The notes beneath the pieces are model-generated. The model searched no databases, was not told where the DNA came from, and saw nothing but the letters and a program-made list of their open reading frames with translations. 64,000 nt of DNA. Source: an uncultured Bdellovibrionales bacterium. GTDB taxonomy: Bacteria; Patescibacteriota; Minisyncoccia; Moranbacterales; UBA2206. The DNA lies in assembly GCA_964406815.1 (NCBI GenBank), contig CAYOTC010000003.1, positions 7,259-71,258 of the forward strand, in the 5' to 3' direction. This document shows positions 11,681 through 52,950 of this stretch, piece after piece (positions within the stretch are counted from its first letter, which is position 1; the number at the start of each line of letters is the position of its first letter). Both the position numbers and the translations under genes were made by a program.

Positions 11681-11749
11681 AAAAGCCTTAATTGACTATC
11701 ATTGGGGCCTTTGTTAATATTGAATAAGTTATTGGTTCATATAAAATCC

Positions 11750-11820: not shown

Positions 11821-11854
11821 CAAAAGAGTCTTTCTATTGAAAATGAAATTATAA

Positions 11855-11938: not shown

Positions 11939-12042
11939 CAAATCGTCGTTTGGTTTTTATATGTAGTTCTTTGGCTAGAAGCTGTTTTTATTTATCTTTA
12001 AACTCATCATAATTTTAAGGAGGAATGGTTTTATGGCGAAAT

Positions 12043-12177: not shown

Positions 12178-12197
12178 TAAAAGAACTTTTTTATAAA

Positions 12198-12231
12198 GGG
12201 CGGCCGAAATTCGGACCGCCCCAGTTTTTTT
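12198..12231. terminator. bidirectional rho-independent terminator
   Basis: GGGCGGCCGAAATTCGGACCGCCCC followed by AGTTTTTTT; poly-A on the other side, so it can serve the convergent minus-strand UDG gene too. Confidence 0.6.
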
Positions 12232-12246
12232 ATAAACTAAGAAAGA

Positions 12247-12855: not shown

Positions 12856-12856
12856 G

Positions 12857-13450: not shown

Positions 13451-13465
13451 GGTTATTTTTTTAGT

Positions 13466-13999
13466 TTATTCCAATTCTCCTACGATTTTTGCCACAGACT
13501 GAATGGTTCCGGTCGTATCAAGAATATTTTTCTTAACAAATCCCTTTGCGCCGGCTGACAGAAATTCTTGATTATAATCCGGTTCGCTTGAAAATCCTAT
13601 GCAAACAATTTCCGGATTATGATGCATTATTACTCTAACCACATCAGCCCCATTGATTTTATTTGCAAGATTTTTGTCCATCAGGACTATATCTGGATTG
13701 TCTTTTAATATTTTACCGGCAAGCCCTCCGATTGTTTGATCAGTGTGGAGCAAAAACGAAGCATTATCATCTGTGGCGAGTATCAGTTCCGGAACAAAAT
13801 CAGAAATTATTTTAGCAAAATCATCAACCATAATGACTTTCTTGTCTTTTAGTGCTTCGCAATTTTCTATATTCCTTTCTATTTTCTTATAGCGCATAGT
13901 CAAACTCAATTTTTCCATTTCTTCATTTACTCTTTTTAATCTTTGCTGGTAAGCTTTTTCTTCCGGAGAGATTTCGATTGCAGGAGTCAGATTTTCCAT
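13466..13999 (-). CDS. response-regulator receiver (CheY-like) domain protein with N-terminal coiled coil and no output domain
   Basis: Receiver residues present: MVDD acidic pair, phospho-acceptor Asp in VLMDKNL, Ser in CIGFSS, Lys in GFVKK. Confidence 0.65.
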   Translation of the reverse strand: MENLTPAIEISPEEKAYQQRLKRVNEEMEKLSLTMRYKKIERNIENCEALKDKKVIMVDDFAKIISDFVPELILATDDNASFLLHTDQTIGGLAGKILKDNPDIVLMDKNLANKINGADVVRVIMHHNPEIVCIGFSSEPDYNQEFLSAGAKGFVKKNILDTTGTIQSVAKIVGELE

Positions 14000-14018
14000 G
14001 TTTTTTATTGTTAATAAT

Positions 14019-14843
14019 TTAGGACCAATAATCGTCAGATTCTTCGTCAGCTGGAGGATTATCTTTCGAATCTTTCGCAGTGGAATTCATTTCTTGCCAA
14101 GTCTTGCTGGCGTTCCAAAGCAGTTCATAAAAAACTCGCATAGTTTTAGTGTAGTCTTCGCTTTCTATGATAAGTCCGAAGCCTTCTTTGCGCGAGCTCA
14201 AAACAGCAACTTTATTATCCCAGATTCCAATAGCATCTGGAATGTCGATTTCTTTCGGAGCGAATCTTACTTTTCTAAGCGTCTCTTCATATGTCTTCGG
14301 GTCGGTATATTTGTATGTCTCAACTCCTCGGCTCAAAATATGAATGGAGCGTATCCAATAGCCCATCTTCTTTTTAGTTTCTACATATTTTTCCAAAAAA
14401 TCTTTACCTACTGTTTCTGTAACAGTACTAATTGGGGAGATCCAATCTGCTTTCTTATACTTAGCTTCAAGAGCTGTAATATAAATATTTCTCAAGCCAT
14501 CCCTTCCTTCATAATAGGTGATTTTTGGCTTCGTCGCGCTGGCATTGTTTAAAGATCGCAATTCCGGAAGCATCTGGCTCAAAAGCTGTTCTTTTTCCTT
14601 GATGTTATGCTTTAGTTTTTCCGGTTCGCTAGCTAAATAAGCCTTCCTTTTACCTTTTATGGATTCGGTTATTAGGCCTGAAGTAGACAGTTTTTTGATC
14701 ATTTCATAGACAGTGCTTCTTTTTATGCCTGATTTTTGGGTCAATTTTTGAATATTGGTCTCTCCAAGCTCAAGAGCGGCTAAATAAACTTTAGCTTCTT
14801 TTTCCTCCAAACCGAATCGTTGTAGGTCATTTTCTAGGCTCAT
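14019..14843 (-). CDS. TrmB-family transcriptional regulator
   Basis: N-terminal wHTH (KVYLAALELGETNIQKLTQKSGIKRSTVYEMIKKLSTSGLI) and C-terminal TrmB-type effector domain. Confidence 0.65.
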   Translation of the reverse strand: MSLENDLQRFGLEEKEAKVYLAALELGETNIQKLTQKSGIKRSTVYEMIKKLSTSGLITESIKGKRKAYLASEPEKLKHNIKEKEQLLSQMLPELRSLNNASATKPKITYYEGRDGLRNIYITALEAKYKKADWISPISTVTETVGKDFLEKYVETKKKMGYWIRSIHILSRGVETYKYTDPKTYEETLRKVRFAPKEIDIPDAIGIWDNKVAVLSSRKEGFGLIIESEDYTKTMRVFYELLWNASKTWQEMNSTAKDSKDNPPADEESDDYWS

Positions 14844-14949
14844 AATATATTAATTCTATAAAATAACGATAAAATTGTCAATATTTATATTATAAATAAT
14901 CTTTATTTAAAGAAATATTAATAATATAAATAAAAATTAGACAATATTA

Positions 14950-14978
14950 TTGACATTTTAATGATTTTGGAGTATAAT
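14950..14978 (+). promoter_or_regulatory. consensus sigma70 promoter TTGACA-N17-TATAAT
   Basis: ttgacattttaatgattttggagtataat about 60 nt upstream of the DUF4116 gene, whose RBS is AAAAGGAG. Confidence 0.5.
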
Positions 14979-15037
14979 TGCTTGTTACGATGAAATAACG
15001 ACCGAACATTAAAAACTTCATAAAAAAGGAGAACAAA

Positions 15038-15682
15038 ATGAAAAGTTTAAACGATTGCATCAATTATTTAAGGCGCAATAGAAATCATGTTGGTTGCATC
15101 ATGGATCTTCCTGAGAAATTCAGAAAAAACAAACTGATTGTTCTAGAGACAGTCAAACAGCTTGCTGAAAATCTTAAACATGTAGATAAGAAATTCCAAT
15201 CAGATAAAGAAGTTGTTCTTGAAGCGGTGAGAGCTGGTGGCGATGGATTTATTTGGGCGGATGAAAAGTTAAAAAATGATAGAAATTTCGCATTGGAAGC
15301 GGTAAAGATTAATAATGCTGCTTTCCAATATGTTTCGAAAATTTTTAAATCAGACAGGGAATTTGTATGGGAAGCAGTCGAGAATTTTTCATATGCACTT
15401 AGGTATTGCTCAACAGAATTCTTGAATGACAAAGAGTTAGTTTTAAAAGCAGTTAGAAATTCAAGCTGGGCATTCCAATATGTCTCCAAAGAATTGCAGG
15501 AAGATGAAGAAATAATTATTGAAGCTTTGCGGACATCAGAAAGGGAAGATGAAGATATAGACTACTTGGTACTCAGGTATGTTTTGGAGGATCTACAAGG
15601 TCACAGAAACATAGCCACCCAAATACTAAGTCGATATCCCCACTTAAAAATGTGGCATCCTCATTTGCTTAAAAATTTGTGA
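15038..15682 (+). CDS. DUF4116 repeat protein
   Basis: Repeated ~30-aa units of the form ...EAV..N..A(F/L)QYVSKE(L/F)..D.E(F/L)V(L/W)... Confidence 0.7.
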   Translation: MKSLNDCINYLRRNRNHVGCIMDLPEKFRKNKLIVLETVKQLAENLKHVDKKFQSDKEVVLEAVRAGGDGFIWADEKLKNDRNFALEAVKINNAAFQYVSKIFKSDREFVWEAVENFSYALRYCSTEFLNDKELVLKAVRNSSWAFQYVSKELQEDEEIIIEALRTSEREDEDIDYLVLRYVLEDLQGHRNIATQILSRYPHLKMWHPHLLKNL

Positions 15683-15749
15683 TTAAAATATCACAAAAGG
15701 CAGGAACTAAATCTAGTTCTTGCCTCTTTTTTATTTTTAAAAAGATATG

Positions 15750-16073
15750 TTAGGCTTTTCCGTATTCGAGAAATATTATTGCGGCGATACCGAGGCATAG
15801 CCCGGTAATTTTATAGGCGGTGATGTTTTCATGGAAGAAAAAATATCCGACTATCGTAAGTGTAATGATATTAAAAATGACCATCGCCATTGAAGCCACG
15901 GCGATGTTTTGATATTTATAACTGTGAGCCAAAAAATTCATGCTGATAAGATAGAGTAGGATTCCAACAATATATAATGACGGGTAGGATTTTATTACCC
16001 AGTTCTTGAGAACAATATCTCCAATTGTGAGGATTATTCCAGCTGCAATGACTAAGATTAGGGGTGTGCTCAT
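15750..16073 (-). CDS. small multidrug-resistance / EamA-like 4-TM transporter
   Basis: 107 aa with four hydrophobic helices. Confidence 0.5.
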   Translation of the reverse strand: MSTPLILVIAAGIILTIGDIVLKNWVIKSYPSLYIVGILLYLISMNFLAHSYKYQNIAVASMAMVIFNIITLTIVGYFFFHENITAYKITGLCLGIAAIIFLEYGKA

Positions 16074-16089
16074 TTTATATTTTTAAATT

Positions 16090-16911
16090 TTATTTCCTTA
16101 AAGACTTTAATATTTCTATATCATCTCTCACTTTGTCATGTTCGGTTTCCAAAATCATATCGATATCATTTTTCTTCGCAAACTTGACGATATTATCAAA
16201 AGCTTCTTTTCCGATGTTTCCTTCTCCGATATGAGCGTGACGGTCGCGGTTCGATCCACATTCAGTGGCACTGTCATTCGCATGGAAAAGTTTTATATTT
16301 TCCAAACCGATTTCTTCGTCTATCTTTTTGAGTGTTGATTTAAAATCGCGCCAATCATATCCGGAAGCAAAAGAGTGCTGTGTGTCCAGACATATTCCGG
16401 CGATATTATCGTTATCAACTTTTTTGATTATTTCTCCAAATTCCTTCAAACTATCTCCGATTATCATTCCGGCGCCGGCACTGTTTTCCAAAAGCAATTT
16501 GGCCGAACCGGAATAACCTTCCAAACATTTTTTGAGCATTTCAACAGTTTTTTCTTCAGCTTCTTTTTCTCCCAAATCTTTGGCGGTTCCAAGATGGGTC
16601 ATGACATATTTCGCACCGATAAGAGAGGCGCGTTCCAGTTCATCACGCACTACAGAGACACTGCCATAGCGGATTCTGTTATTACTCGAAGCGAAGTTTA
16701 TATAATACGGCGTATGGACGACGACAGTATTTATCTTATATTTCTCAACTAGCGATTTGAATTGGGAAATTATCTTTTCGGTAAGCTCGGGGGCTTTTCC
16801 TCCTTGCGGGGAGCGGGTGAAAATCTGCATGCACTCGCAACCTAAATCAGCGGCGCGTTCCGGCGCTTTATCGATTCCTCCTGCGATTGAAATGTGACAA
16901 CCGATGTTCAT
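16090..16911 (-). CDS. nfo: endonuclease IV (AP endonuclease, TIM barrel)
   Basis: MNIGCHISIAGG...MILETEHD; start at the ATG at 16909-16911, excluding the 20-aa extension in the ORF track. Confidence 0.85.
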   Translation of the reverse strand: MNIGCHISIAGGIDKAPERAADLGCECMQIFTRSPQGGKAPELTEKIISQFKSLVEKYKINTVVVHTPYYINFASSNNRIRYGSVSVVRDELERASLIGAKYVMTHLGTAKDLGEKEAEEKTVEMLKKCLEGYSGSAKLLLENSAGAGMIIGDSLKEFGEIIKKVDNDNIAGICLDTQHSFASGYDWRDFKSTLKKIDEEIGLENIKLFHANDSATECGSNRDRHAHIGEGNIGKEAFDNIVKFAKKNDIDMILETEHDKVRDDIEILKSLRK

Positions 16912-17100
16912 TTTAGTATTGAGTATAAAGTATCTCGTATTCAGTATAAGATAAAAAATATCAAATACCAAATTATTTTTTTCTAATTAAAAAGTGCCGC
17001 GGAGCGACACTTTATTTATTGTTGATATTTTTTCATACTGAATTTACCGTGCCTCGCCGGCAGGCGGGTTTCAGCATCTAGGATTATTTTGTTTTAGTTA

Positions 17101-17126
17101 GATTCTGAAACAAGTTCAGAATGACA
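17101..17126. repeat. short palindromic repeat GATTCTGAAACAAGTTCAGAATGACA
   Basis: Same family as the copies at 13160..13222 and 29666..29913; intergenic between nfo and nrnA. Confidence 0.55.
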
Positions 17127-17134
17127 TTATAAAA

Positions 17135-18094
17135 CTATTCAATTTTCCAACCATTTTCCGTCTCAATTATCCTTCCTTTGATTTCAAAGCCCGAGGCGAG
17201 TTTGTGGCCGCCACCGCCGAATTCGGCCGCCATTTTGGAAACGTCCACTCCTTTATATTCTTCAGAACGAAGGCTGCCTTTTATGATCCCGTCTTCTCGT
17301 TCAGAAAGTATCAAAGAAAATTTTGTTCCGGGAACGGTATTCAAAATTGAAGCGACTTGGGCAATATCATCTGTTCCGGCATTGCATTCATCCAGATCTT
17401 TCTTAGTTAGAACGGAAACAATCATACCGTTTTCTTGATTTATTTTGGCTCGATCAAATGCTTTGCCCCAAAGTTTCAGAGTGGAGATTTTTTTATTGCT
17501 GAAAGTGGAATTGACGATTTTTGATATAGGCGCGCCCTTTTTCATAAGGTCGGATATGATATTGAGGACAGTCGGAGTGGTATTGGAATGTTGAAGCATA
17601 CCGGTGTCGGAAAGAATTCCTAGCATAAGATAGGTTGCCATCTCTTTAGTAATTTCTATTTTATTGAAGGAAAAGAAATCATAAATCATTTCGCAGACCG
17701 AGGAGTACATCGGATCGATGATGGTGATGTCTCCTTTTATGGTTATATCCGGATGATGATCGATGAGGGCGATTATCTGTTCTTCTTTGATATTTGGCAA
17801 TATTTTTTCAAATCCTCTTTCGACACTGTCAGTGGCGATTATCAGTTTGTATTTTTCAAGTTTCAATTCATCCGGCGCCAGAAATTTTTCATCAGAAAAA
17901 GAACCAAGATATTCCGGAAATCGGTCGAAACAAGCAATTTCAACATTTTTTCCAAGACCTTGGATATATTCCTTGAGCGCAAGAACCGAACCGGTCGTGT
18001 CGCCGTCCGGCCGGGTATGCGCAAAAAGCAGGATATTGTCCGATCCCTTGATGGCATAATTCAATGTGTTGTAATCGCTGGCGAATTTTTTCAT
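17135..18094 (-). CDS. nrnA: DHH-family phosphoesterase (NrnA-like oligoribonuclease / pAp phosphatase)
   Basis: DHH motifs HTRPDGDTTGS and IDHHPD, DHHA1-type C-terminus with GGGGH. Confidence 0.8.
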   Translation of the reverse strand: MKKFASDYNTLNYAIKGSDNILLFAHTRPDGDTTGSVLALKEYIQGLGKNVEIACFDRFPEYLGSFSDEKFLAPDELKLEKYKLIIATDSVERGFEKILPNIKEEQIIALIDHHPDITIKGDITIIDPMYSSVCEMIYDFFSFNKIEITKEMATYLMLGILSDTGMLQHSNTTPTVLNIISDLMKKGAPISKIVNSTFSNKKISTLKLWGKAFDRAKINQENGMIVSVLTKKDLDECNAGTDDIAQVASILNTVPGTKFSLILSEREDGIIKGSLRSEEYKGVDVSKMAAEFGGGGHKLASGFEIKGRIIETENGWKIE

Positions 18095-42272: not shown

Positions 42273-42344
42273 GCGGGTGTCGTATAGTGGCTATTATATC
42301 AGCCTTCCAAGCTGAGGAGGGGGGTTCGATTCCCCCTACCCGCT
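42273..42344 (+). tRNA. tRNA-Gly (anticodon TCC), used as the integration site
   Basis: Acceptor GCGGGTG/TACCCGC, anticodon stem TCAGC/GCTGA with loop CTTCCAA; the last 17 nt are repeated at 50884..50900. Confidence 0.85.
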
Positions 42345-43949
42345 CAACATAGTAGAAACAGCTTCCAAATGAGCTGTTTTTGCTTTTTCAGAAGCAAATT
42401 CTGCTGGTTCTAACGCGCCAAATTCAACCTTGATCAAATTCACACCGTTTTGGATTAGTTCATATTGTTTTTGCAGTTGAATGCTCAATTTTTGGTCTTT
42501 AAGAACAAAGTTAGAACCTAATGCTCTCAAAATTGCTGACTTATCTTCATAAGTTCCCTCCGAAAACCAATACTTGCTGTAAGTTGCAAACTTAAATGTT
42601 TTTTCTGTTAGATCTATCCATTCGTTTATTCTTTCGTCTAAATTTTTAAGTTCTCGCTGAATCCCGGACTTTTCTTTAAGCAGAACAGATTTCTGTTCCC
42701 TAAATTCTTCGTCGGATAGCAATTCTCTGTTGGCATTATCAGAAGATATGTAAAGCTTGATAAGATTATCTATCCTTTTTGTGCAGTCAATAAACGCTTT
42801 CTGCTGATTTTTAATCAAAAGCTCTCTATTGACACTCTCTTTTTCATTTTCCCTGTTCAAAATTTCAATGGCAAGGTTGAAATAACTTTCTGGTATGGAA
42901 ATACTATCTATAATTTGGAATGCTTGGCTTTCCAGCTCTGAATAGTTTATGGGTTTTTGGTTACAGGTTATTCCGGCTTTTCTTTTTGTGCAACGGTGAT
43001 AGATGTATGAATGTATCTTTCCCTCCGATTTTACATACTTGGTCTTTTCGTCCGCAGTTATTGCACAACCGCATTCTCCACAAAATATCAATCCAGTTAA
43101 AGGAAGTTTCTTATGCTTCGCGCGCGGCTTTCCTTTTCTTCCCAATATTTTCTGAACCTGATCATATTCTTCTGGTGTAATCATTATTTTATGTTGTCCC
43201 TGATAAACTTTTCCGGCGTATTCAAATTCCCCATAGTAAAAAGTGTTTGTGAAAATCCGGTAGATGTGCGACAAGCTCAATCTCGTTTGCCTTTTGTAAT
43301 AGCTGGTGCGAAGTCCCCATTGGTCATTAACTATTTCAGCTATTTGAGGAACTGTATAGTTTCCAGTAAGCATTAGTTCCCACATTTTTCTTACTAAATT
43401 AAATTTTTTCTCATCAACTAAAATTTCCTTGCTTCCCTTATCTTGATACCTGTCATTTAAATATCCTATCGGAGCAAGTCCCGGACGCCAACCCTTTTCT
43501 GCTTTTGATACAAGCCCTCTTTTTACATCTTTGGATAAATCAAGGACAAACTGGTTTGCCATTCCCAATTCAACACTCATCATCATCACATTATCTCCCG
43601 TCCTATATTCGCGTGAGGGCGTCTGAATTGAGCGTAGGGAGCTTTCTTGCAATAACCACTGTATTTCACCCCCATCAATCGGATTTCGGGAAAGGCGGTT
43701 GATTTTCCAACAAAGTATTCCATTTGCTCCGCCTCTTTTAATTTCCTCCAACATCTTATTAAATTCAATTCTGCCGGGAGCTTTGGCTGATTTATTTTCC
43801 TCATAAAAACCAACTACTTCCAAATTAAGCAGTTTGGCGTATTTTTCCAGCTCTTTGCGCTGATCTTCAATGGATTGAATCTGCCGATCTTCTGAATCGG
43901 TAGATTTTCTTAAATACATAAGATATTTAATTTTTTCTGAATTCTCCAT
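42336..43949 (-). CDS. large serine recombinase (resolvase catalytic domain, recombinase domain, Zn ribbon, coiled coil)
   Basis: N-terminus YLRKSTDSEDRQIQSIEDQR with catalytic Ser, ...GILCWKINRLSRN; CxxC pairs (CGECGC...C); C-terminal coiled coil; 3' end overlaps the tRNA-Gly 3' end. Confidence 0.85.
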   Translation of the reverse strand: MENSEKIKYLMYLRKSTDSEDRQIQSIEDQRKELEKYAKLLNLEVVGFYEENKSAKAPGRIEFNKMLEEIKRGGANGILCWKINRLSRNPIDGGEIQWLLQESSLRSIQTPSREYRTGDNVMMMSVELGMANQFVLDLSKDVKRGLVSKAEKGWRPGLAPIGYLNDRYQDKGSKEILVDEKKFNLVRKMWELMLTGNYTVPQIAEIVNDQWGLRTSYYKRQTRLSLSHIYRIFTNTFYYGEFEYAGKVYQGQHKIMITPEEYDQVQKILGRKGKPRAKHKKLPLTGLIFCGECGCAITADEKTKYVKSEGKIHSYIYHRCTKRKAGITCNQKPINYSELESQAFQIIDSISIPESYFNLAIEILNRENEKESVNRELLIKNQQKAFIDCTKRIDNLIKLYISSDNANRELLSDEEFREQKSVLLKEKSGIQRELKNLDERINEWIDLTEKTFKFATYSKYWFSEGTYEDKSAILRALGSNFVLKDQKLSIQLQKQYELIQNGVNLIKVEFGALEPAEFASEKAKTAHLEAVSTMLSG

Positions 43950-44210
43950 AGATATTTAATTTAAGAATACTAAAAGGACGGACTGGTTGACCCAACTTAC
44001 CACGAATGATTTGTCGGCAGTCCGCCCTTTTAGGACGACAAAAAACAAAAATTCGTGGAATTTGATTGGGTCAACACTTAAATTATAGTGTAAATGTTAA
44101 CATTTGTCTACATTTTCTGATATTTTAAACCGTAACAATATTATTTTGTAAATGCTATCATTTGCTATCATATTCAGATATTTTGATATGTATAATACCA
44201 TCATTTACCA

Positions 44211-44459
44211 CTATTCTCTGATATTTTCTATGCGTAGCGCGTATTCTCGTAAACTATCATCTAACAATATCAGTCCTTGATTTTCCACCAAAATTGCCAA
44301 TTCAGTCCAGTTCATACCATATGATATTTTTCTTGCATAGCTATCGCTAAAACCAGCTTTCAATGCAGATCTGTAATAATTATGGCAAGTTTCACTTTCC
44401 GGAGAAAAATAATAGCGCGCAAATTCCAGTTTTCTTTCTGATAGTTTATATCTATTCAC
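44211..44459 (-). CDS. phage terminase small subunit-like HTH protein (Terminase_2-type N-terminal domain)
   Basis: LSERKLEFARYYFSPESETCHNYYRSALKAGFSDSYARKISYGM matches the conserved TerS pattern L(T/S)xKQxxFxxxY...AxxxAGYSxxxAR. Confidence 0.5.
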   Translation of the reverse strand: MNRYKLSERKLEFARYYFSPESETCHNYYRSALKAGFSDSYARKISYGMNWTELAILVENQGLILLDDSLREYALRIENIRE

Positions 44460-44576
44460 AAAATATAAATAATTTATTTACCCTTATTTAGAGGAATAAT
44501 ATAGATTATAGTTATTACTACAGTATTTATCTAAAGTAATGAGGTGCAATTTGTATTACTATAGTATTCAACTTAT

Positions 44577-44891
44577 TTAATGTTCTTTAACTATCGGCAT
44601 ACTTGCGTAATCATACTGCCTTAATACTTCGTCAGAAATCTTTTTCCAAAGCGTTTTTTCAACAAGTAAATATTTAAAAGGCGGAAATCTTCTTTGTGGC
44701 ACTTGAACATTTAACCCACCATATTGGCTTTTCCAAACTGTAAAACCAGTGATTGTAAAATATTGTCCGGTAATCCCTCTGAAAGAAACCGTAGCATTGG
44801 CAAGCAAATTAGGGTGTCTTTTGGAATTTTTGTCTGAAAATGGCTTGACCTTACAAACAAACTCATTAAGATCAATTTGTGTGTTTTGCAT
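44577..44891 (-). CDS. SpoVG-like protein, putative
   Basis: NLLANATVSFRGITGQYFTITGFTVWKSQYGGLNVQVPQRR resembles the SpoVG core (...[23 protein letters not shown]); remembered similarity only. Confidence 0.35.
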   Translation of the reverse strand: MQNTQIDLNEFVCKVKPFSDKNSKRHPNLLANATVSFRGITGQYFTITGFTVWKSQYGGLNVQVPQRRFPPFKYLLVEKTLWKKISDEVLRQYDYASMPIVKEH

Positions 44892-44917
44892 ACTAATTTA
44901 AATTTTAATAATTATTT

Positions 44918-45202
44918 TTAGTTTATTTCTCCCCGCCTCGTTTTTGATAAGGCGTTTAGCCACTTTAAATTGCTTTGTGGCACAAAAATCAGGATAGCAT
45001 CTGGCATAACAGTGCCTCCGGATACAAATTCTCGCTCGTTAATCTTTGCTGGCTTGGGTTCTCTCATAAATCGGCACTTGTCTTGATTCCTACCACTTCT
45101 CAAATGGAGTTCAGGGTCTAATGGACAAAAGTTTTGGGAGCAACTCTTAAAATGCGGACATTTCCCCATATTATCTGTAAATGATTGGCATTGTTTTTTC
45201 AT
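44918..45202 (-). CDS. small Cys-rich hypothetical protein
   Basis: 94 aa with seven Cys (e.g. CPHFKSC, CSQNFC), likely metal-binding. Confidence 0.4.
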   Translation of the reverse strand: MKKQCQSFTDNMGKCPHFKSCSQNFCPLDPELHLRSGRNQDKCRFMREPKPAKINEREFVSGGTVMPDAILIFVPQSNLKWLNALSKTRRGEIN

Positions 45203-45449
45203 AGGATTTTAATCTTAATTTATTAGAAAACGCTTCATAATTTGTTTTTTTGATTGGCTTATAAACCCTTTTTAATAGCCCCACCAAATTTCTGATGCAT
45301 TCAAAAGATTCTTCGGAAGAAATAGCTTGTCCGGTTTCAATTTTATATAGTTTTTGGAATTTTTTTGCGTCAGATTCAGTGATCATTTTTTTAGTTATAA
45401 ATTCTTCCTTTTGTTTCTTTTTGGATTGAGATAAACTTTTTTGGTTCAA
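45171..45449 (-). CDS. small hypothetical protein (overlaps neighbours, phage-like packing)
   Basis: 92-aa basic ORF. Confidence 0.3.
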   Translation of the reverse strand: MNQKSLSQSKKKQKEEFITKKMITESDAKKFQKLYKIETGQAISSEESFECIRNLVGLLKRVYKPIKKTNYEAFSNKLRLKSYEKTMPIIYR

Positions 45450-45624
45450 CCAATAGTTTATTTTGATAAAAATTTTCTAAAATTTTCTCAGTATCCTCTT
45501 GTTTTTCCAAATGGAAAATGCACCGATTAGCATTACTTTTATCAACTTTGATTAGCTGGTGATTGAGATATTGCAAAACTACGCAGATATTTAGATCGGA
45601 AGTTTGAAAAAATTTTCTAATCAT
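45391..45624 (-). CDS. small hypothetical protein
   Basis: 77-aa ORF overlapping 45171..45449 in another frame. Confidence 0.3.
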   Translation of the reverse strand: MIRKFFQTSDLNICVVLQYLNHQLIKVDKSNANRCIFHLEKQEDTEKILENFYQNKLLVEPKKFISIQKETKGRIYN

Positions 45625-45697
45625 AATTTTTGTAACTAAAAAAGCATACTTTCAGTATGCTCTTTTTAATGGTTCTGTCGTTTTTATCTACCTATTT

Positions 45698-46462
45698 CTA
45701 CCTATTCCCATTTTTAAAGTTTCCTAATTCATTTTTTAATTTTGTTATGTCTATCGGATCAATAACCGTTACTTGCTTGATCAATCTAATTTTCTGTTTG
45801 GCGACATTGAATAGATACTTCCTCAAAGCTCCTTTTATTTTTATATCATTCAAAAAATTATTGAAGGGCTTTATTTCCCTTTTTAATTCTTCCTTTAATT
45901 CGCTTTTTAAAAACACTTTTCCATCATTTTCAAATAAAAAGGCGATAATTGAATCATTTGAAGATTCAAAATCTGGTCTTGCAATTAAAATATTATTTAT
46001 TTTTATTTCCCTTGTTTTTTCATTATAGTCCAATCTTAAATCAAATATGGGAGAATTATTTACCTGAAAGTTTTTTAGAAATTCTGCAATTTTTTTTGGA
46101 TAAAATTTGCATTTGGCTCTCAAAAGAATATAATTAACATCTTTAAGATGAGCTTCATTGATCTGTTGCAAATAATCTATTGGATCAAAATACCTTTCTT
46201 CCACCAGTTGGGAATCGTCCGGTTCATATTTTTCAAGTTTATAGCTTACAATAACGTTCTTTCCTTTTAAATATTTGAGTTCATTTTCCTTATCCCACGC
46301 ATAATCAAAATTATCATAATCGCCCAGTATAACATTACCTGTTTGTATGTTTTTGCCAATTCTCTTATTTTTTATCCCTTTTTCTAATTGATCAATAATT
46401 TGTTTTAGAATTACAGGATTTGGCTCGGTGGTTTTTTCTGTTTTCTTGTTTACGTTTGCCAT
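45698..46462 (-). CDS. hypothetical protein (largest non-integrase gene of the leftward module)
   Basis: 254-aa ORF, no recognised motif. Confidence 0.45.
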   Translation of the reverse strand: MANVNKKTEKTTEPNPVILKQIIDQLEKGIKNKRIGKNIQTGNVILGDYDNFDYAWDKENELKYLKGKNVIVSYKLEKYEPDDSQLVEERYFDPIDYLQQINEAHLKDVNYILLRAKCKFYPKKIAEFLKNFQVNNSPIFDLRLDYNEKTREIKINNILIARPDFESSNDSIIAFLFENDGKVFLKSELKEELKREIKPFNNFLNDIKIKGALRKYLFNVAKQKIRLIKQVTVIDPIDITKLKNELGNFKNGNR

Positions 46463-46736
46463 TTTAATGTCATTTTAATTTCTTTTATTTTAACCCTGAT
46501 TTTGCCCAATATCAAGCAAAAAGTTGTTTTTTTGTCTATCTTGTATTAAAGTATAGATGTCTATACATTCACATAAGTTCAGAAGTGGAAACACTATTTT
46601 AGTGTTATTGATCGTGATTTTAAGCGGGCGACTCCGACGACACGATCAGACCACTTCGGTGATTTTGTGAGTGTATAGACCGTCGGGTCGTCCACTCAAA
46701 AGAACTTCCTGACGGCTTAACTATTAAGTCGTTTTT

Positions 46737-47978
46737 ATGTTCAAGAAAATAGTAATTATCCCATTATTTTTACTTCTTCCCCTATTCTCCTACGCCTCTG
46801 ATAATAGACTTTTGGATCAATATGATGAATGGAAAGCGGAGCAAGACGAAAAGACATCAGTAAACCAAGCCGACGAAACCAAACAAGAAAACGGACAACC
46901 CACATTGTATAGAAATGATGATTATAAATTCAGAATAAATTTTCCTGCCGGTTGGGAGTTAAAAGATGGCGATGGCAAACACGTTGTCAAAAAAGCTGTC
47001 AAAGATGGTTGCACTGTCCTTGTTTTGGTTAAAGATTCACAAGAAGAAAAAAACACATTATCCACAAACGAAAGAGCTGAATTAAATTCTTTTGAGTTTA
47101 GCGATTTTTCCGATGAAGAAGCGGATGAGCTCATAAACGAAATGATCAAAGAAAATGAAACTGCTTTCCCTGGTAGTAAAACGATTGAAAAAGGAATTAG
47201 ATATTTGGATAACCGCAAGGCGGGTTATTATAAAGTTTCCACTCCCTATAAAGTAGCTAATATTGAAGCAAAAGCTATTGCTATCAATTATTTGACGATT
47301 CATAAGGGCAGATTTTATCAAATTATTGGATCATACCCGATAGAGCCAGTAACCGAACAAAATAAAGAGCCAGTTATAAATGCTTCTTTAATGACTTTTG
47401 TTTTTGAAGATTGGAACAATCAAGATAATGTTAATTCTATTTCTGAAAATTCAAACAATCCAGTTAAAGAGGCTCTTTTAGATTCTTATGGTGAAAATCT
47501 TAATAACTTTGGATTATTTTTGGCTGTAATTTTAAGCATCTTATTTACTTGGGGGTTTGGTCTTTTAATTCCAGTATTGATTCGCTTTGTTTTTTTGAAA
47601 AGACCTCTTTCAGGGGGGTTATCTTTTTTGATTGTTTTTATCACTTATTTAATCCAGTTTTCAATTCCATATCTTATAGGTGATATAAAAAGTGAGGATA
47701 GACCTCGCATTGCACTAATTCTCGTTGCTTTTGTTGCTTATAAGATATTAAGAAAAAAAGTATCTAATAAAATAAACAATGAAGAAAGCGATATTAGCAA
47801 AGAAGAAATAATTAAATATTGTAAAGAATGTGGCAATAAGATCAATGCTTCATCTACAATTTGCGATAAATGTCATATCCAAAAATCCAAAAAAAGACGG
47901 AAAGAATTATTATTAGCGTTTTTAGCTATTGTCTTGATTACAATGTTAATACTATTTGTAGCCATATTGTTTAGTTAA
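46737..47978 (+). CDS. signal-peptide membrane protein with cytoplasmic zinc ribbon
   Basis: Signal peptide MFKKIVIIPLFLLLPLFSYA; three TM helices; CKECGNKIN...CDKCH; terminal TM. Confidence 0.5.
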   Translation: MFKKIVIIPLFLLLPLFSYASDNRLLDQYDEWKAEQDEKTSVNQADETKQENGQPTLYRNDDYKFRINFPAGWELKDGDGKHVVKKAVKDGCTVLVLVKDSQEEKNTLSTNERAELNSFEFSDFSDEEADELINEMIKENETAFPGSKTIEKGIRYLDNRKAGYYKVSTPYKVANIEAKAIAINYLTIHKGRFYQIIGSYPIEPVTEQNKEPVINASLMTFVFEDWNNQDNVNSISENSNNPVKEALLDSYGENLNNFGLFLAVILSILFTWGFGLLIPVLIRFVFLKRPLSGGLSFLIVFITYLIQFSIPYLIGDIKSEDRPRIALILVAFVAYKILRKKVSNKINNEESDISKEEIIKYCKECGNKINASSTICDKCHIQKSKKRRKELLLAFLAIVLITMLILFVAILFS

Positions 47979-48000
47979 AAATTTCAATAAGAATAAAAAT

Positions 48001-48297
48001 ATGATTTGTAAAAAATGCCAAAAAGAAATAGATGATGATAGCAAATTCTGCGAATTTTGTGGAAATAAATTGGTAGAAAACACCAAGGATATAGCGCACA
48101 GAATTATAAAAACCGAACATAAGGAAGATAAGCTTCGTTTTTATACGAAAAATACAATTTTAATTTTTTCCGTCCTGATGGTAACCAGTTTTTTCCTTGA
48201 GAATTATTTTGGCGATAATGGTCTTATTTTGTCTATTCCAGCAACAATTTTAATAATTTTTATTTATAACAAGATTGCTAAAAAATTTAATTTATGA
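48001..48297 (+). CDS. zinc-ribbon plus TM small protein
   Basis: CKKCQKEIDDDSKFCEFCGNKL then two hydrophobic helices. Confidence 0.45.
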   Translation: MICKKCQKEIDDDSKFCEFCGNKLVENTKDIAHRIIKTEHKEDKLRFYTKNTILIFSVLMVTSFFLENYFGDNGLILSIPATILIIFIYNKIAKKFNL

Positions 48298-48854
48298 AAA
48301 TGATAAAAAACTTTTTTCAAAATAACAGAACTGCTCTGCTTGCAATAGTTATAACAGTAGTAGCAACTTCGGCAGTCGCATACGGTTTTTTTGTGATAAA
48401 AAACGAAAGGAAAAGTGCCAATCAGAGAGTTGAAGCCTTGCAAAAATCAGTGGAAGAATTACAAGCCAAAAATGAGACAAATCAAGAAATAAGCGAAGAG
48501 CCAGAAAAGGATATTCCTGTTGAAGAAACTTCTGTTCAACAATCCCCGATAGTCAAAAAGAGCGCGGTGGTTGCTCCAATAAAAACCGAGGAGGCGGAAG
48601 AAAAGCTAGTATCCTGTGTAGCTTTTAACGGTGATACCCTTAAGGTTAGCAAGGATGAATGTGATGAAATAAAGCAGAAGAATGTTATAGCTCAAAAAGC
48701 GTTGGATAAATATGAAGAATGTATTTCAAGCGCAGAAGAAGAATTTCAAGAAAATTTAAAAAGTGGTTACAGCTCGTCTTATCCGGAAGAATACAATAGG
48801 AGTGTTAATGAATGCGCAGAAGAAAGAAATGCGAAATTAGAAAAACTTTTGTAG
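48294..48854 (+). CDS. membrane-anchored coiled-coil protein, hypothetical
   Basis: N-terminal TM, coiled coil, Cys-containing C-terminus; start overlaps the previous stop (ATGA). Confidence 0.45.
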   Translation: MKMIKNFFQNNRTALLAIVITVVATSAVAYGFFVIKNERKSANQRVEALQKSVEELQAKNETNQEISEEPEKDIPVEETSVQQSPIVKKSAVVAPIKTEEAEEKLVSCVAFNGDTLKVSKDECDEIKQKNVIAQKALDKYEECISSAEEEFQENLKSGYSSSYPEEYNRSVNECAEERNAKLEKLL

Positions 48855-48925
48855 TTTCAGTTTTCTTGATTTCTGGCACATATTGGTGATACCATTAAAT
48901 ATCATACGCCTAAAAGCACACTCAT

Positions 48926-49855
48926 ATGCGCCTTAAATTGAAAAAAGCTATGTTTATAACCAGTGCTTTTTGTGCTGTTTTTTTATTTTCCAGTCCGGCT
49001 TTAGCCCATCCGGGGAAAACCGCATCTGACGGATGTCATTATTGCCGAACGAATTGTGACAAATGGGGCGTTCCGTGGAATCAGAGGCATTGCCACGGCG
49101 GAAGCGTCAGTCCGCCTACTGTAATCCCAAATCCAGCGCCAAGCAACGGATCAGGCAATGGTTCGGCAACTTCCAATACGCCAGTAACAGAAGTCAAAAA
49201 GTTATGCTCTAATAAAGATACTTGCACAGCCAAAGCCAACATTGTTATTGATGGCGACACGATAGTTTTAGATACGGGCGAAAAAGTTCGTTATATTGGA
49301 ATTGATACTTCGGAAACTGTTGATCCGCGAAAGCCAGTCCAGTGTTTCGGAAAAGAAGCGTCAGAAAAAAATAAAGAGCTTGTGGAGGGTAAGGAGGTTA
49401 GATTGGTTAAAGATATTTCTGATAAAGATAAATACGGACGGCTTTTGAGGTATGTTTATATTGGTGATGAATTTATTAACGATTCTTTGGTTAAAAACGG
49501 ATTTGCTCATTCTTCCAGCTATCCGCCGAACATAAAATACCAAGAGCAATTTAGTAAGTCAGAGGAGGAAGCAAGAAACAATAAAAACGGGCTCTGGGCT
49601 GACGGAGTATGCGGAAATCCGGTTAATGCCGAAACGGAAAACAAACCGGCAGAGCAGGAAAATATAGTCAATCAAGAAGAAATTGTTCAAAATCAGCCGC
49701 AAGACAGTGAAGTTGCTCAAACTACAAATAATACGGAGAATGATATGAATAAACCGGAAAGTAGTAGAGCAAGATTTAGCACAAAAGAAAGAATTTTTAT
49801 GTCATTATCCGGTGCAATCGGGGGGATTTATTACTTCGTAAAATCTATATTATAA
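48926..49855 (+). CDS. secreted staphylococcal-type (thermo)nuclease domain protein with Cys/His-rich N-terminal module
   Basis: Signal peptide ...SSPALA; SNase core VIDGDTIVLDTGEKVRYIGIDTSE...GRLLRYVYIGDEFINDSLVKNGFAH; Gln/Asn-rich tail. Confidence 0.7.
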   Translation: MRLKLKKAMFITSAFCAVFLFSSPALAHPGKTASDGCHYCRTNCDKWGVPWNQRHCHGGSVSPPTVIPNPAPSNGSGNGSATSNTPVTEVKKLCSNKDTCTAKANIVIDGDTIVLDTGEKVRYIGIDTSETVDPRKPVQCFGKEASEKNKELVEGKEVRLVKDISDKDKYGRLLRYVYIGDEFINDSLVKNGFAHSSSYPPNIKYQEQFSKSEEEARNNKNGLWADGVCGNPVNAETENKPAEQENIVNQEEIVQNQPQDSEVAQTTNNTENDMNKPESSRARFSTKERIFMSLSGAIGGIYYFVKSIL

Positions 49856-49864
49856 AAACACTCA

Positions 49865-50602
49865 ATGTCAGAGAATAATCCAAATATTAGTTTTGATATT
49901 ATTGATATTTTGTTAAAGACAGGATCTCTTTTGGGCTTTGTAGCATTCTTTTATACTTTAAGAATAAATGCCAGAAATGTGCCAAAATTTTATTTTGATT
50001 TCGGACATTTTTCCGGAATAAACAAGCTAAATAGCTCTGATGGAAAAATACACTTCGCGTGCACTTTTGGTGGAACAATAATCAATCAAAGTTCCGAAAG
50101 TAATTACATAAAAAAGATCTACTTAGCTGTCTGGGAAAACACTAAAAAACGAGATAAAACCTTAAGATTTGGTTACGGTGGCATAGATAAGATTAACGAC
50201 AAAGTTACGGAAGAGGATTTAGAACTACCCATAGAATTCAAACCCAAAGAGGGCAAACGAATTGAAATTAGATTTCTGCAACAAGCTACAGGAACTTGTG
50301 ATGAAAAACTTATTGAAGAAGCTAAGCCGGTAGCGTATATACTTCCAACCAATCCAATCCTTAGATTATTTGCCAAAAATAAGCATAGTATTTGCAGAAG
50401 TGGATATGAATTAGTTTTTGAAGATACAAAAGGCAATATGTTTGATCAAAAGGGCAAAATTATAAGCGGAAAGGTATTAAATTTAACCTGGACACTTTCA
50501 AGTTACAAAGGAATGAAACGAATTAGACAAGAAGTTAAAGTGCGCTATTATAAGTTAACTTTCTACCTTAAATCAGTTTTTATGAAACTTGGTTTCTTTT
50601 AG
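49865..50602 (+). CDS. membrane-anchored hypothetical protein
   Basis: N-terminal TM (ILLKTGSLLGFVAFFYTL), soluble domain. Confidence 0.45.
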   Translation: MSENNPNISFDIIDILLKTGSLLGFVAFFYTLRINARNVPKFYFDFGHFSGINKLNSSDGKIHFACTFGGTIINQSSESNYIKKIYLAVWENTKKRDKTLRFGYGGIDKINDKVTEEDLELPIEFKPKEGKRIEIRFLQQATGTCDEKLIEEAKPVAYILPTNPILRLFAKNKHSICRSGYELVFEDTKGNMFDQKGKIISGKVLNLTWTLSSYKGMKRIRQEVKVRYYKLTFYLKSVFMKLGFF

Positions 50603-50710
50603 TTTTTGGAGAAATTGGCTTCTTATGATAAATTTGGAATATAAAAAAAGTTACTGTTGAACATAAAGAAAGTTCTAACTTCCTCCACAGTTCGGCTCAA
50701 AAAGAAAAAA

Positions 50711-50740
50711 TCCAGGATTTATTCCTGGATTTTTTCTTTT
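50711..50740. terminator. bidirectional rho-independent terminator
   Basis: TCCAGGATTTATTCCTGGA flanked by an A-run and a T-run. Confidence 0.6.
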
Positions 50741-50883
50741 GGTCGAGGAGTGGAATCGAACCCGGCAGAAGCGAGATGCGATCCGCCATTGGCGGATAGT
50801 AATCAAGCGCCGGAAAATTCGAGCGAGTGAGGATTTTCCGCTGCCGAGGGCAACGAGTCTCGCCGCGGCGGGACGAGGCGATA

Positions 50884-50900
50884 GATTCCCCCTACCCGCT
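50884..50900 (+). repeat. attR: 17-bp copy of the tRNA-Gly(TCC) 3' end (GATTCCCCCTACCCGCT)
   Basis: Exact direct repeat of 42328..42344. Confidence 0.75.
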
Positions 50901-51038
50901 TATTCTCAAAAAACAGCTCCATTCAAGCTGTTTTTTTATTTTGAAATATAGTCAGCTTCTTGACAGTAATATATAATGGGTATATATTCATAATATAGAC
51001 TCAATTAATAAATTAAAATAGAAAGGAAGGTGATTAAT

Positions 51039-51293
51039 ATGCCAAGACAAAATGGAACAGGTCCGATGGGAATGGGTCCAATGACTGGACGAGGAATGGG
51101 TCCTTGTGGGGCAGGTTTTGGTTCGGGTTTGGGAATGGGCAGGGGTTATGGTAGGGCGATGTGCGGATGGTTTTATAGGAAATATCAGACAATGCCAAAG
51201 GGTGAAAGAAAAGAGTTGTTAAAAACGGAAATTGAAGATCTGAAACAAGAAATGCAAATGGTCGAAGAAGAACTGAAACAGCTAGAGAAATAG
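51039..51293 (+). CDS. DUF5320-family glycine-rich coiled-coil protein
   Basis: MPRQNGTGPMGMGPMTGRGMGPCGAGFG...coiled coil; RBS AAAGGAAGG; TTGACA-N17-TATATT promoter at about 50968. Confidence 0.65.
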   Translation: MPRQNGTGPMGMGPMTGRGMGPCGAGFGSGLGMGRGYGRAMCGWFYRKYQTMPKGERKELLKTEIEDLKQEMQMVEEELKQLEK

Positions 51294-51387
51294 TTTCCAT
51301 CGAAAGTAGCCTTTCTCCTTCTTGAGCTAGCAAGGAGGGAGGAGATTATTTTTAATGGTATAATAGTATTAAAATTAATATAATTTT

Positions 51388-51663
51388 ATGGTAAGACCAA
51401 GAATGTGCCGAAGATTGAGATTTAAACCAAAGGCGCACTATTTTAAGCCCCAAGGAATTCCGATGAATCAATTGGAAGAAACTGTTTTAACTAAAGAAGA
51501 AATGGAGGCGATAAAGCTCAAAGATTTTGATGGATTGGAGCAAATTGAAGCTTCAGAAAAAATGAATACTTCCCAAAGTACTTTTCAGCGAATCCTGTCT
51601 TCTGCCAGAGTTAAAATTGCCAGGGCGGTTGTCAATGGTGAGGCCTTAAGGATTGAAGAATGA
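51388..51663 (+). CDS. DUF134 / UPF0251-family predicted DNA-binding protein
   Basis: MVRPRMCRRLRFKPKAHYFKPQGIP...EAIKLKDFDGLEQIEASEKMNTSQSTFQRILSSARVKIARAV. Confidence 0.65.
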   Translation: MVRPRMCRRLRFKPKAHYFKPQGIPMNQLEETVLTKEEMEAIKLKDFDGLEQIEASEKMNTSQSTFQRILSSARVKIARAVVNGEALRIEE

Positions 51664-51707
51664 AAAAAGTATAATTTAAAACGATATTTTTGTTTTTTAT
51701 TATAATA

Positions 51708-51736
51708 TTGACAAATTATCAAAATAAAAGTAATAT
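51708..51736 (+). promoter_or_regulatory. sigma70-like promoter TTGACA-N17-TAATAT placed immediately before a terminator
   Basis: ttgacaaattatcaaaataaaagtaatat. Confidence 0.4.
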
Positions 51737-51744
51737 ATTTGCAA

Positions 51745-51785
51745 AAGAAAGGCTTTCGTTGACTTCGAGCCTTTCTTTTGTTTTT
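51745..51785 (+). terminator. rho-independent terminator (10-bp stem)
   Basis: AAGAAAGGCT-ttcgttgacttcg-AGCCTTTCTT followed by TTGTTTTT. Confidence 0.6.
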
Positions 51786-51924
51786 CCCTAAAATAAAGTA
51801 AAAGTTAGGAACCTGTGGATAACTTTAAAAATTGCCTATAAAACTGCTGAAAAAAGAAAATCTCTTTATTTTTTGGTAAAATTTATATTTTTTATATATG
51901 GATTAAGAGATGAAAATTCTGCTG

Positions 51925-51965
51925 AAGAGATTTTTGGCTATAAATAGCCAAAAATCTCTTTTTTA
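51925..51965. terminator. perfect 17-bp-stem hairpin plus T-run
   Basis: AAGAGATTTTTGGCTAT-aaa-ATAGCCAAAAATCTCTT followed by TTTTT. Confidence 0.6.
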
Positions 51966-52031
51966 AAACCCTAAAATTAGGAAAAATGTTGATTTTAAGC
52001 CAAAAATAGTGTATAATTAGGTCAGAAGAAA

Positions 52032-52217
52032 GTGCAAAAACCTTTATTAAAGGAGTTTGTTATGTTTATAGTAAATGCTGATAGTGTTGCAAGAATGATA
52101 AAAAAAGGCGATATTGACTTTCAAAAGTATCTCAATGTGTTAAGAAAAAGCCTTGAGATGCTTAAGAAAAAAAATATCATTGAGGTAACTTCAAATCCAA
52201 CCATGTTTATTGTCTAA
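52032..52217 (+). CDS. small hypothetical protein
   Basis: 61-aa ORF preceded by TTGATT-N17-TATAAT and followed by the terminator at 52250..52290. Confidence 0.3.
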   Translation: MQKPLLKEFVMFIVNADSVARMIKKGDIDFQKYLNVLRKSLEMLKKKNIIEVTSNPTMFIV

Positions 52218-52249
52218 TTCGACAAAAACAAAAACAAAAACACTTTTTC

Positions 52250-52290
52250 TCGCCAGGATCGGTTCTCCGACTCCTGGCGAAAATGTTTTT
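52250..52290 (+). terminator. rho-independent terminator
   Basis: TCGCCAGGA-tcggttctccgac-TCCTGGCGA followed by AAATGTTTTT. Confidence 0.55.
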
Positions 52291-52596
52291 AGGGATATTT
52301 TTTTTCTCTAACTTTTCTTGTCAGCAAGAAAAGTTACAAAAGAACTGTCCGCACGAATTCGCTCAGTATAAATTTTCGCTCATTCGTTCAAAATCCAGGT
52401 TATTCCTTCTGCAATAAGACCGGATTTTTTCACTCATTCACTCAATTTATAAACCTCGCGAATTAAGTGCGGAATTATAAAATGCTAAATACGCGCTTCG
52501 CAAAGTTTGGATTTGGAATGCAAGAATATAATAAATACTTTTGGATAATAAAAAACCGCCAGCATAACTGACGGTTTTTTTATTTATATCTAGTAT

Positions 52597-52950
52597 CTAG
52601 GCGATTTTCCGGAAAGTTATCTTGTAGACCGGTTCATAAGAATTCTGGTATTCATCTTTGATTTCCAGAGTCTTTCCTTCCATTAAGGTGCTCATAGCGA
52701 TGTCGGTAATAAGCTGGTTGGTTTCGTCAGATTTTTTCTTAAGATCTTCCAATCGGGCATACTTCGCTCCCATCCGGCCTTTGGTAATGTTCTCAATCTG
52801 TTTTTTCTTCTCTCGAAGTCTTTTCAGCTCGTCGGTGGTCTCTTCATATTCGTTGGCGTTTATCAGCGCATCTTTGTAGTCGCGGTTGATTTCCTTCATT
52901 TCTTTCTTCATTTCTTGGAGCTTGTCGAATAATTCCTGTACGTTTTGCAT
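52597..52950 (-). CDS. coiled-coil hypothetical protein
   Basis: 117-aa ORF with a hairpin plus T-run terminator downstream (52563..52590 region). Confidence 0.5.
   Translation of the reverse strand: MQNVQELFDKLQEMKKEMKEINRDYKDALINANEYEETTDELKRLREKKKQIENITKGRMGAKYARLEDLKKKSDETNQLITDIAMSTLMEGKTLEIKDEYQNSYEPVYKITFRKIA

Follow-up and report, generated by a model that had tools for sequence, protein, structure and literature searches.

The segment 42345-50883 of the stretch of contig CAYOTC010000003.1 analysed here, from a genome of the Moranbacteria (Patescibacteria) (the window, 64 kb in full; all coordinates are positions in it) is probably an integrated cargo island, which inserts itself by means of its own large serine recombinase (LSR) and is tycheposon-like in operation. 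The island is a member of a large Patescibacteria-wide family that has tRNA gene ends as its regular targets. An earlier note on this DNA had described an integrative element with its attachment (att) sites, attL and attR, in a tRNA-Gly(TCC) gene. Our data agree with that description: a 17-nt repeat marks both ends, the LSR is intact, and 27 of 29 relatives with this tRNA gene have no second tRNA end. The features of the insertion site and its junctions are as follows.

42273..42344, + strand: tRNA-Gly(TCC), the intact target gene (ARAGORN; Rfam tRNA, 57 bits)
42328..42344, + strand: attL identity block, 17 nt, from mid T-loop (TTC|GATT) to the discriminator base (exact repeat; junction alignment)
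42359..42381, + strand: element-borne terminator hairpin of the regenerated tRNA, inside the 3' coding end of the integrase gene (int)
50884..50900, + strand: attR identity block, the displaced original tRNA-Gly 3' end (exact repeat)
50908..50936, + strand: original host terminator of tRNA-Gly, of the AAAACAG...CTGTTTTT type found after the tRNA-Gly of relatives

The 17-mer GATTCCCCCTACCCGCT is found exactly twice in the window, also when two mismatches are allowed, and two matches to it were seen in none of 100 shuffles; the exact repeat of the tRNA end that the earlier note had pointed out is thus real. An AACAGCT-loop-AGCTGTTTTT hairpin follows both copies, and its loop differs between the two sites, as had also been noted. 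At attL, this hairpin encodes the conserved K-A-K-T-A residues of the integrase (Int; consensus C-terminus), and CTACCCGCT within the tRNA gene reads, in reverse complement, as the last Int codons, Ser-Gly-stop. Two related loci, L056 (Int 88% identical) and L058 (Int 66% identical), are inserted in tRNA-Gly(GCC) beside rplS (L-numbers label the related loci fetched for comparison). Both have the same hairpin and the TTTTTGCTTT run directly after the tRNA, within the int coding region. Because the attL hairpin is conserved in siblings sitting in another tRNA, Gly-GCC, it is the element's own; therefore both the tRNA 3' end and the terminator come with the element, as part of the 3' end of int, and for the tRNA-end copy this had been proposed previously. 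The 3' part of tRNA-Gly(TCC), from the crossover point on, is accordingly element-supplied. An Rfam scan of 41.5-52 kb at a permissive threshold matched only the two tRNAs.

Comparison with relatives points to the same conclusion. The genes of the left flank are iPGM, RNase Y, HU and tRNA-Pro, and those of the right flank are DUF5320, DUF134, amidase, rpoB and rpoC. An RNase Y scan of species-representative genomes yielded 54 loci, nearly all from metagenome-assembled genomes of Candidatus Moranbacteria or Parcubacteria, in which the gene order iPGM-RNaseY-HU-tRNAPro-tRNAGly(TCC)...amidase-rpoB is conserved. None of the 54 synteny loci has the recombinase or other element genes at the corresponding place, and the distance from HU to the amidase is 1.7-8.2 kb in relatives versus 11.3 kb in the window. 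The empty tRNA-Gly(TCC) site on which the earlier reading depended was found in relatives, all of them other species: 27 of the 29 loci with tRNA-Gly(TCC) carry no second downstream copy of its last 14 nt. Moreover, the tRNA-Gly of relatives is followed by an AAAACAG...CTGTTTTT terminator like that to the right of 50900. Since the tRNA trailer of relatives resembles the sequence to the right of attR, that sequence is the ancestral trailer, and what lies between the repeats has been inserted.

The region after this tRNA gene is variable in other respects. The genes for DUF5320 and DUF134, together with an untranslated stretch of ~900 nt, lie at 51030-52950, between attR and a conserved p117-amidase pair; all of these are absent there in relatives, which points to a second variable segment beside the island. 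In L025, a variable region after tRNA-Gly (13488-17367) holds a Mrr-type restriction endonuclease and a Bro-N protein, and its content suggests that the region after tRNA-Gly is a general hotspot for accessory genes.

We infer a model of integration from this anatomy. In the circular form, attP would consist of the GC-rich right end of the element, the 17-nt block and the 3' end of int. The tRNA-Gly(TCC) gene would be split by recombination between this site and the part of the gene from the T-loop to the discriminator; the element would restore the tRNA with its own 3' end and the terminator hairpin inside the int coding sequence, and the original tRNA 3' end and terminator would be pushed out to attR. 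The crossover dinucleotide would lie within the 17-nt block, whose left edge, in the T-loop, is the probable position of the cut, and the right limit of the block, the discriminator base, would be set by the need to rebuild a functional tRNA. In the reconstructed attP, a P-arm GCGGG stands opposite a P'-arm CCCGC. A scan of the reconstructed attP and attB for dyad symmetry gave modest values (10-12 of 24 positions), and the crossover dinucleotide could not be fixed from it because the symmetry is only modest.

The integrase and its upstream region comprise two features.

42336..43949, - strand: large serine recombinase, 537 aa (Pfam PF00239, PF07508, PF13408; PHROG 95 integrase, 1e-66)
43950..44227, - strand: promoter and leader region of int, kept in L140, L060 and L142

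Profile searches found the three LSR domains, namely the Resolvase domain (PF00239, 1.2e-17, residues 11-153), Recombinase (PF07508, 1.2e-7) and Zn_ribbon_recom (PF13408, 5.9e-10), confirming the intact 537-aa LSR at attL, with its stop in the tRNA 3' end, that the earlier note had seen. Residues Y12, R14, K15 and S16 are invariant in 35 Int homologues, and the YLRKST motif makes S16 the likely catalytic serine. Between int and the gene of a small protein upstream, p82, lie three 26-nt direct repeats (44101-26, 44159-84 and 44202-27), the first of which coincides in part with the sequence most like an int promoter. A leader of ~110 nt comes next and contains a long inverted repeat, GTTGACCCAA...TTGGGTCAAC. 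The repeats and the structured leader are both conserved in L140, L060 and L142.

At E<=1e-20, a search with Int gave 2982 homologues, most of them in assemblies of Patescibacteria. We fetched 84 related loci and examined 85 including the window, 77 of which had enough flank. The end of the int open reading frame (ORF) abuts or overlaps the convergent tRNA 3' end in 64 of these 77 loci, and in nearly all of them it runs into the tRNA. Of the members at or above 47% identity, 24 gave a tRNA, and in all of them it is tRNA-Gly (GCC 13, TCC 7, CCC 4), and the overlap between int and the tRNA is 10-12 nt in 22 of the 24. More distant members (44-50%) are at tRNAs for Asn (10), Gln (8), His (6), Trp (5), Ser (4), Arg, Pro and Glu (2 each) and Met (1). 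The choice of tRNA follows integrase phylogeny. Siblings with 85-89% identical Int occupy Gly-TCC or Gly-GCC in different species, which speaks for mobility. The earlier note had taken a tRNA-targeting LSR to be uncommon; it was right about the tRNA site but missed that this clade targets tRNA genes as a rule. A literature search found no paper on this Patescibacteria integrase family, which is apparently undescribed, and no relatives of the integrase were found in 2.9 million IMG/VR contigs.

With regard to size, L147 measures ~8.6 kb and L148 more than 10.9 kb, and the far ends of the other relatives lie beyond the fetched flanks. The L148 contig, at 10,976 nt, is almost exactly one sibling element, with the T-arm of the tRNA at one end and the conserved right-end motif at the other. 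The L005 contig stops (end region 12215-12273) at ...GGTTCGATT, 4 nt into the 17-nt att block. Contig breaks such as these are what heterogeneous occupancy would give in an assembly, and they are suggestive in that respect.

The right end of the element is formed by a distinct module.

50752..50883, + strand: GC-rich structured right-end module, 132 nt (61% GC versus ~35% around it), which abuts the attR block

This module presumably contains the P arm of attP. Homologues are found in L042 (6426-6567), L052 (12571-12683) and L058 (13830-13957, - strand). In L042 and L052, the module lies 170-300 nt after tRNA-Gly(TCC), a second copy of the 3' end of that host tRNA comes after it, and element genes are lacking in between; in L058, it follows a tRNA-Leu and the repeat is decayed. 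L042 (6208-6690) and L052 (12441-12740) look like gene-less miniature remnants of the family that consist of tRNA-Gly, terminator, GC-rich module, tRNA 3' copy and terminator. L042 carries a duplication of both trailers and of 55 nt further downstream, and the interval is partly N-masked. Since the module recurs in miniature remnants, it is probably the right-end part of the element.

The four copies of the module share a 21-pair consensus structure in which 94% of cells are paired and 12 pairs show compensatory changes. None of 500 shuffles equalled it and slid controls reached 32-47% paired, the alignment being one of four sequences only; folding of single sequences is unexceptional (z -1.9 and -1.5). 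G-U pairs fall on the + strand, which would set an RNA codirectional with the tRNA, ending at the tRNA terminator. The module has no match in Rfam, and nhmmer and covariance-model searches of 1.8 Mb of loci returned the four convincing copies and none further.

Two candidates near the right end were rejected. The repeat at 50884 could have been an older scar, as in L052, except that a new insertion beside a scar would give three tRNA-end copies, where only two are present in the window. For 50745-50770 (GGTTCGATTCC-like), a remnant of a tRNA or tmRNA on the minus strand was considered, but no tRNA-like fold is supported there. The window also has its own tRNA-Gly(GCC), at 6966-7038, which is the target type used by siblings such as L056; its 3' end, GACTCCCGTTACCCGCT, shows 3 mismatches to the att block over the 17 positions. 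This gene appears unoccupied because neither an Int paralogue nor the GC-rich module occurs elsewhere in the window.

Between int and the right end lie the following features.

44211..44459, - strand: p82, small helix-turn-helix (HTH) protein, 82 aa (AlphaFold2, pLDDT 77; Foldseek; hhalign)
44577..44891, - strand: p104, SpoVG-fold protein (AlphaFold2, pLDDT 87.5; Foldseek)
44918..45202, - strand: p94, Cys-rich, cluster C10 (no family match; 9 cluster members in related elements)
45171..45449, - strand: p92, backbone protein, cluster C1, present in 55 loci (clustering)
45391..45624, - strand: p77, DUF5659 backbone protein, cluster C2 (Pfam PF18903, 2e-7; conserved position)
45698..46462, - strand: p254, first gene of the leftward operon, with a C-terminal domain of ~100 aa
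46463..46736, no strand: divergent control region between the backbone and cargo operons, with a 30-nt inverted repeat (46559-88 and 46651-80)
46737..50602, + strand: cargo operon of p413, p98, p186, SNase309 and p245 (Pfam; PADLOC SNc+LTD, 4e-29)
50700..50740, no strand: bidirectional terminator, a perfect 18-bp hairpin after the cargo operon

Clustering of the proteins of all loci defined a family backbone with a constant order: a variable head gene (220-790 aa), DUF5659, a p92-like gene, a large replication protein, one or two small proteins (C5/C6, C3) and int. The replication protein is a zinc-finger-Toprim primase of ~720 aa, a DnaG zinc ribbon with an ATPase, or a Prim-Pol with AAA_25; since most members encode a Toprim or Prim-Pol primase, they probably replicate after excision. 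The window copy has p254, the DUF5659 protein p77, p92 and int from this backbone. No primase-replicase was matched in the window element by Pfam, PHROG and NCBIfam scans, and the primase position is taken instead by p94, p104 and p82, three putative small DNA-binding proteins. The same primase-less layout recurs in L060, L061, L140, L142 and L148 (Int 85-89% identical), and therefore it is a maintained variant. In L147, an island of ~8.6 kb (5339-15616) is driven by another LSR, of 591 aa, and interrupts a comM/yifB-like Mg-chelatase gene, yet it has p94 (54%), p104 (73%) and the SNase (52%) in common with the window element. The presence of these genes beside an unrelated LSR shows that modules are exchanged between elements.

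Of the leftward genes, p92 probably starts at Met22, giving ~71 aa, as judged from tblastn matches that begin at residue 22. The C-terminal domain of p254 occurs in 146 representative proteins of unknown function and has weak MarR-like matches (E ~0.03); from these it is possibly a winged helix. p104 had no match in the Pfam scan. One of its 15 homologues matches SpoVG (PF04026) at 0.0064, the L142 gene in its position passes the Pfam SpoVG threshold, and in Foldseek the p104 model aligned to SpoVG 2i9z_B with probability 1.0, E 0.043 and TM-scores of 0.54/0.65. This modelled fold suggests that p104 is probably a nucleic-acid binding protein. Profile searches of the PDB with p82, p104 and p254 gave nothing significant.

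The cargo of the window variant is envelope or secreted proteins, including an SNase-type nuclease. Judged by eye from sequence, as are all signal peptides, transmembrane segments and secreted or membrane calls on the cargo, p413 has an apparent signal peptide and transmembrane segments with a zinc ribbon, and p98 has a zinc ribbon and an apparent transmembrane segment. SNase309 is a secreted SNase-type nuclease, its SNase domain being detected by profile. p413, p186 and the SNase are common to L056, L061, L140 and L148; p245 was found neither on other contigs nor elsewhere on the record. In relatives, the cargo is likewise on the opposite strand and variable, with DNA methyltransferases, restriction enzymes, a MerR-type HTH protein and, in several, the same secreted SNase nuclease. 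PADLOC detected no defence system in the element besides the SNase domain. The cargo list of the earlier note therefore stands in outline, SNase domain included, but its 'SpoVG-like' and 'TerS-like' entries have no Pfam or PHROG support for the window proteins themselves and hold at the level of the fold or of a partial similarity only.

That note had gone further and read the island as a phage satellite similar to phage-inducible chromosomal islands (PICIs). In its explicit form, this reading describes a PICI-like or PICMI-like (phage-inducible chromosomal minimalist island) satellite induced by a Moranbacteria helper phage, in which p82 would direct the large terminase (TerL) of the helper, perhaps via the 26-nt repeats as a pac site, to package the 8.5-kb genome. 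We consider this unlikely. Its small size, the terminal integrase, the divergent control region and the absence of virion genes are all consistent with a satellite; the lack of capsid, portal, terminase and tail genes was confirmed by Pfam, PHROG, NCBIfam and PADLOC scans, which found no virion genes among the element proteins. The relatives carry primase or helicase genes, and P4 and PICIs, as satellites, also carry such genes. Three direct repeats lie beside the p82 gene, and the best neighbours of p82 are all small terminases (TerS), whether by Foldseek, tblastn or hhalign.

The similarity of p82 to small terminases is weak and partial. In Foldseek, the top three PDB neighbours had E 1.4-1.8 and the BFVD neighbour had E 0.03 with probability 1.0. 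A tblastn search of 50,697 phage records gave only two matches, both annotated as small terminases, at E 0.7-0.9. Aligned by hhalign to one of these two, the TerS of Javan226 and a true Terminase_2 member (PF03592), p82 reached a probability of 89.8% over 35 columns (residues 8-47 versus 3-37). These comparisons of sequence and model suggest that residues 8-47 of p82 resemble, weakly and in part, the N-terminal DNA-binding HTH of the TerS type. The similarity spans ~35-40 HTH residues, the hhalign alignment ends at residue 47, no counterparts of the oligomerisation and TerL-binding parts were found in p82, and no terL was found in the element by Pfam and PHROG scans. The proposal that a profile search would identify the 82-aa protein as TerS-like failed: p82 matched nothing in Pfam (including Terminase_2), PHROGs, NCBIfam or PADLOC, and what is left is the HTH resemblance of ~40 residues.

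The distribution of p82 also speaks against the satellite reading. Its homologues number 7 in 5.8 billion proteins, all in one sub-clade, so p82 is not a hallmark of the element family, and most family members have other small proteins beside int. It is possible that p82 is a regulator, a recombination directionality factor or a packaging-site binder; its location beside int, with repeats over the int promoter, fits an int regulator or directionality factor at least as well as a packaging role. Furthermore, genes for capsid size or interference were not found, a helper phage is not known, no relative was found in IMG/VR, and profile scans of the window copy detected no repressor family that could supply a master repressor. 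Therefore, the PICI-like label is not established, with no full TerS, recognisable repressor, replication module or capsid-redirecting gene found. It rests on one weak, partial similarity, because only ~40 residues of p82 resemble TerS, and such an HTH resemblance alone is too little to call the island a satellite. The satellite features that the island does show are an integrase, att sites, a small size within the range of about 5-15 kb and the lack of virion and lysis genes, and those only.

A broader version of this idea is that the element, perhaps with its whole family, is a hitchhiker: the window variant would have dropped its primase and would depend on a Moranbacteria phage or an autonomous sibling, p82, as a cut-down TerS HTH, would mark the DNA for packaging via the 26-nt repeats, and the GC-rich module, fused to the displaced tRNA 3' end, would give rise to an element RNA whether the element is integrated or excised. 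We hold this to be improbable as well; if true, no satellite system would have been described in the Candidate Phyla Radiation before it.

Less probable again is that the island is a decaying, immobile remnant without a replication module, fixed as a carrier of envelope and nuclease genes useful to the host. The primase of most relatives is indeed absent here, the L042 and L052 miniatures show that the family decays in place, and the region after tRNA-Gly differs among species. However, all ORFs are intact, the repeat matches at 17 of 17 positions and the int catalytic motif is kept, and the primase-less layout (p94, p104 or SpoVG, p82, int) is found in at least five siblings at 64-89% identity, which suggests a maintained variant. 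It seems very improbable that the island is a full prophage stripped of its structural genes: the integrase matches a phage integrase PHROG and one of 89 non-redundant neighbour proteins of the relatives (200-750 aa) has a single weak 'major tail protein' match (1.6e-11), but no terminase, portal or capsid gene was seen beside int in the 84 related loci, the best 25 of 45 matched PHROG families being helicases, methyltransferases, primases, ParB and ATPases. Moreover, all these loci have one compact, non-viral backbone in common, and no relatives were found in the 2.9 million IMG/VR contigs.

The reading as a self-integrating cargo island has points against it too. Neither an excised form nor an attP junction nor a strain-level attB allele was seen, and the unoccupied sites are all from other species (RNase Y 66-86% identical). 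Among 46 relatives, the 10 kb next to int hold no distal att repeat of at least 12 nt, the few matches of 11 nt being probably fortuitous; with no repeat of the tRNA end near the int of relatives, the window is therefore the only complete, delimited copy. The element genes diverge from those of the L140 sibling (52-88%) about as much as the host genes do (61-77%), and therefore recent transfer is not proven by that pair. Finally, most element proteins are of unassigned function, and an unrecognised packaging or transfer function may be among them.

In function, judged by analogy, the closer counterparts of the self-integrating island are the cargo-carrying tycheposons of Prochlorococcus rather than a demonstrated phage satellite. 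Like tycheposons, the elements described here are small cargo islands in streamlined genomes, located at tRNA genes, the integrase being adjacent to the tRNA and the opposite end carrying a partial tRNA; many members have a primase/helicase module, and degenerate remnants lie beside tRNA genes. By the published description, this layout is found at the level of the family, the window copy being without a replication module. Tycheposons use a tyrosine recombinase in 910 of 937 cases and an LSR in the rest (Hackl et al., bioRxiv 10.1101/2020.12.28.424599). In contrast, the family here is all LSR, its int ORF overlaps the tRNA 3' end, its host is Patescibacteria, and its backbone (DUF5659, p92-like, C3, C5, C6) is unrelated. 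With PICIs and Staphylococcus aureus pathogenicity islands (SaPIs), the element has in common its small size, an integrase at one end, a divergent control region, the lack of virion genes and primases in relatives; it differs in its integrase, which is of the serine and not the tyrosine type, and in having no full-length TerS, recognisable repressor, capsid-redirecting gene or known helper. The L042 and L052 miniatures, with terminator, GC-rich module and second tRNA 3' end, are similar to remnants of the cis-mobilizable element (CIME) type, which are att-flanked and without recombination genes, although the identical trailers of L042 are also consistent with local duplication.

The integrase itself shares its three-domain architecture with the LSRs of phages and integrative and conjugative elements (Bxb1, phiC31, A118, TP901-1 and SPbeta type), and the mechanism is probably the same. 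LSRs cut short att sites at the centre with a 2-bp stagger, and for excision they require a directionality factor. Known LSRs mostly hit protein-coding genes, whereas the clade here, as a rule, hits the 3' ends of tRNA genes. The use of tRNA genes as integration sites is commonly attributed to tyrosine integrases. In one survey, 14 of 297 serine integrases used a t(m)RNA gene, a use said there to be previously unreported (Mageeney et al. 2020, PMC7192596).

Taken together, the result at the level of the family, a serine-integrase clade dedicated to tRNA 3' ends with int overlapping its target, is more interesting than the satellite question. The clade offers many natural pairs of LSR and att site with short, highly conserved targets, which are useful for genome engineering. 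For the Patescibacteria, whose mobile elements are poorly known, the family would be a main vehicle of gene flux, moving restriction-modification genes, nucleases and envelope proteins.

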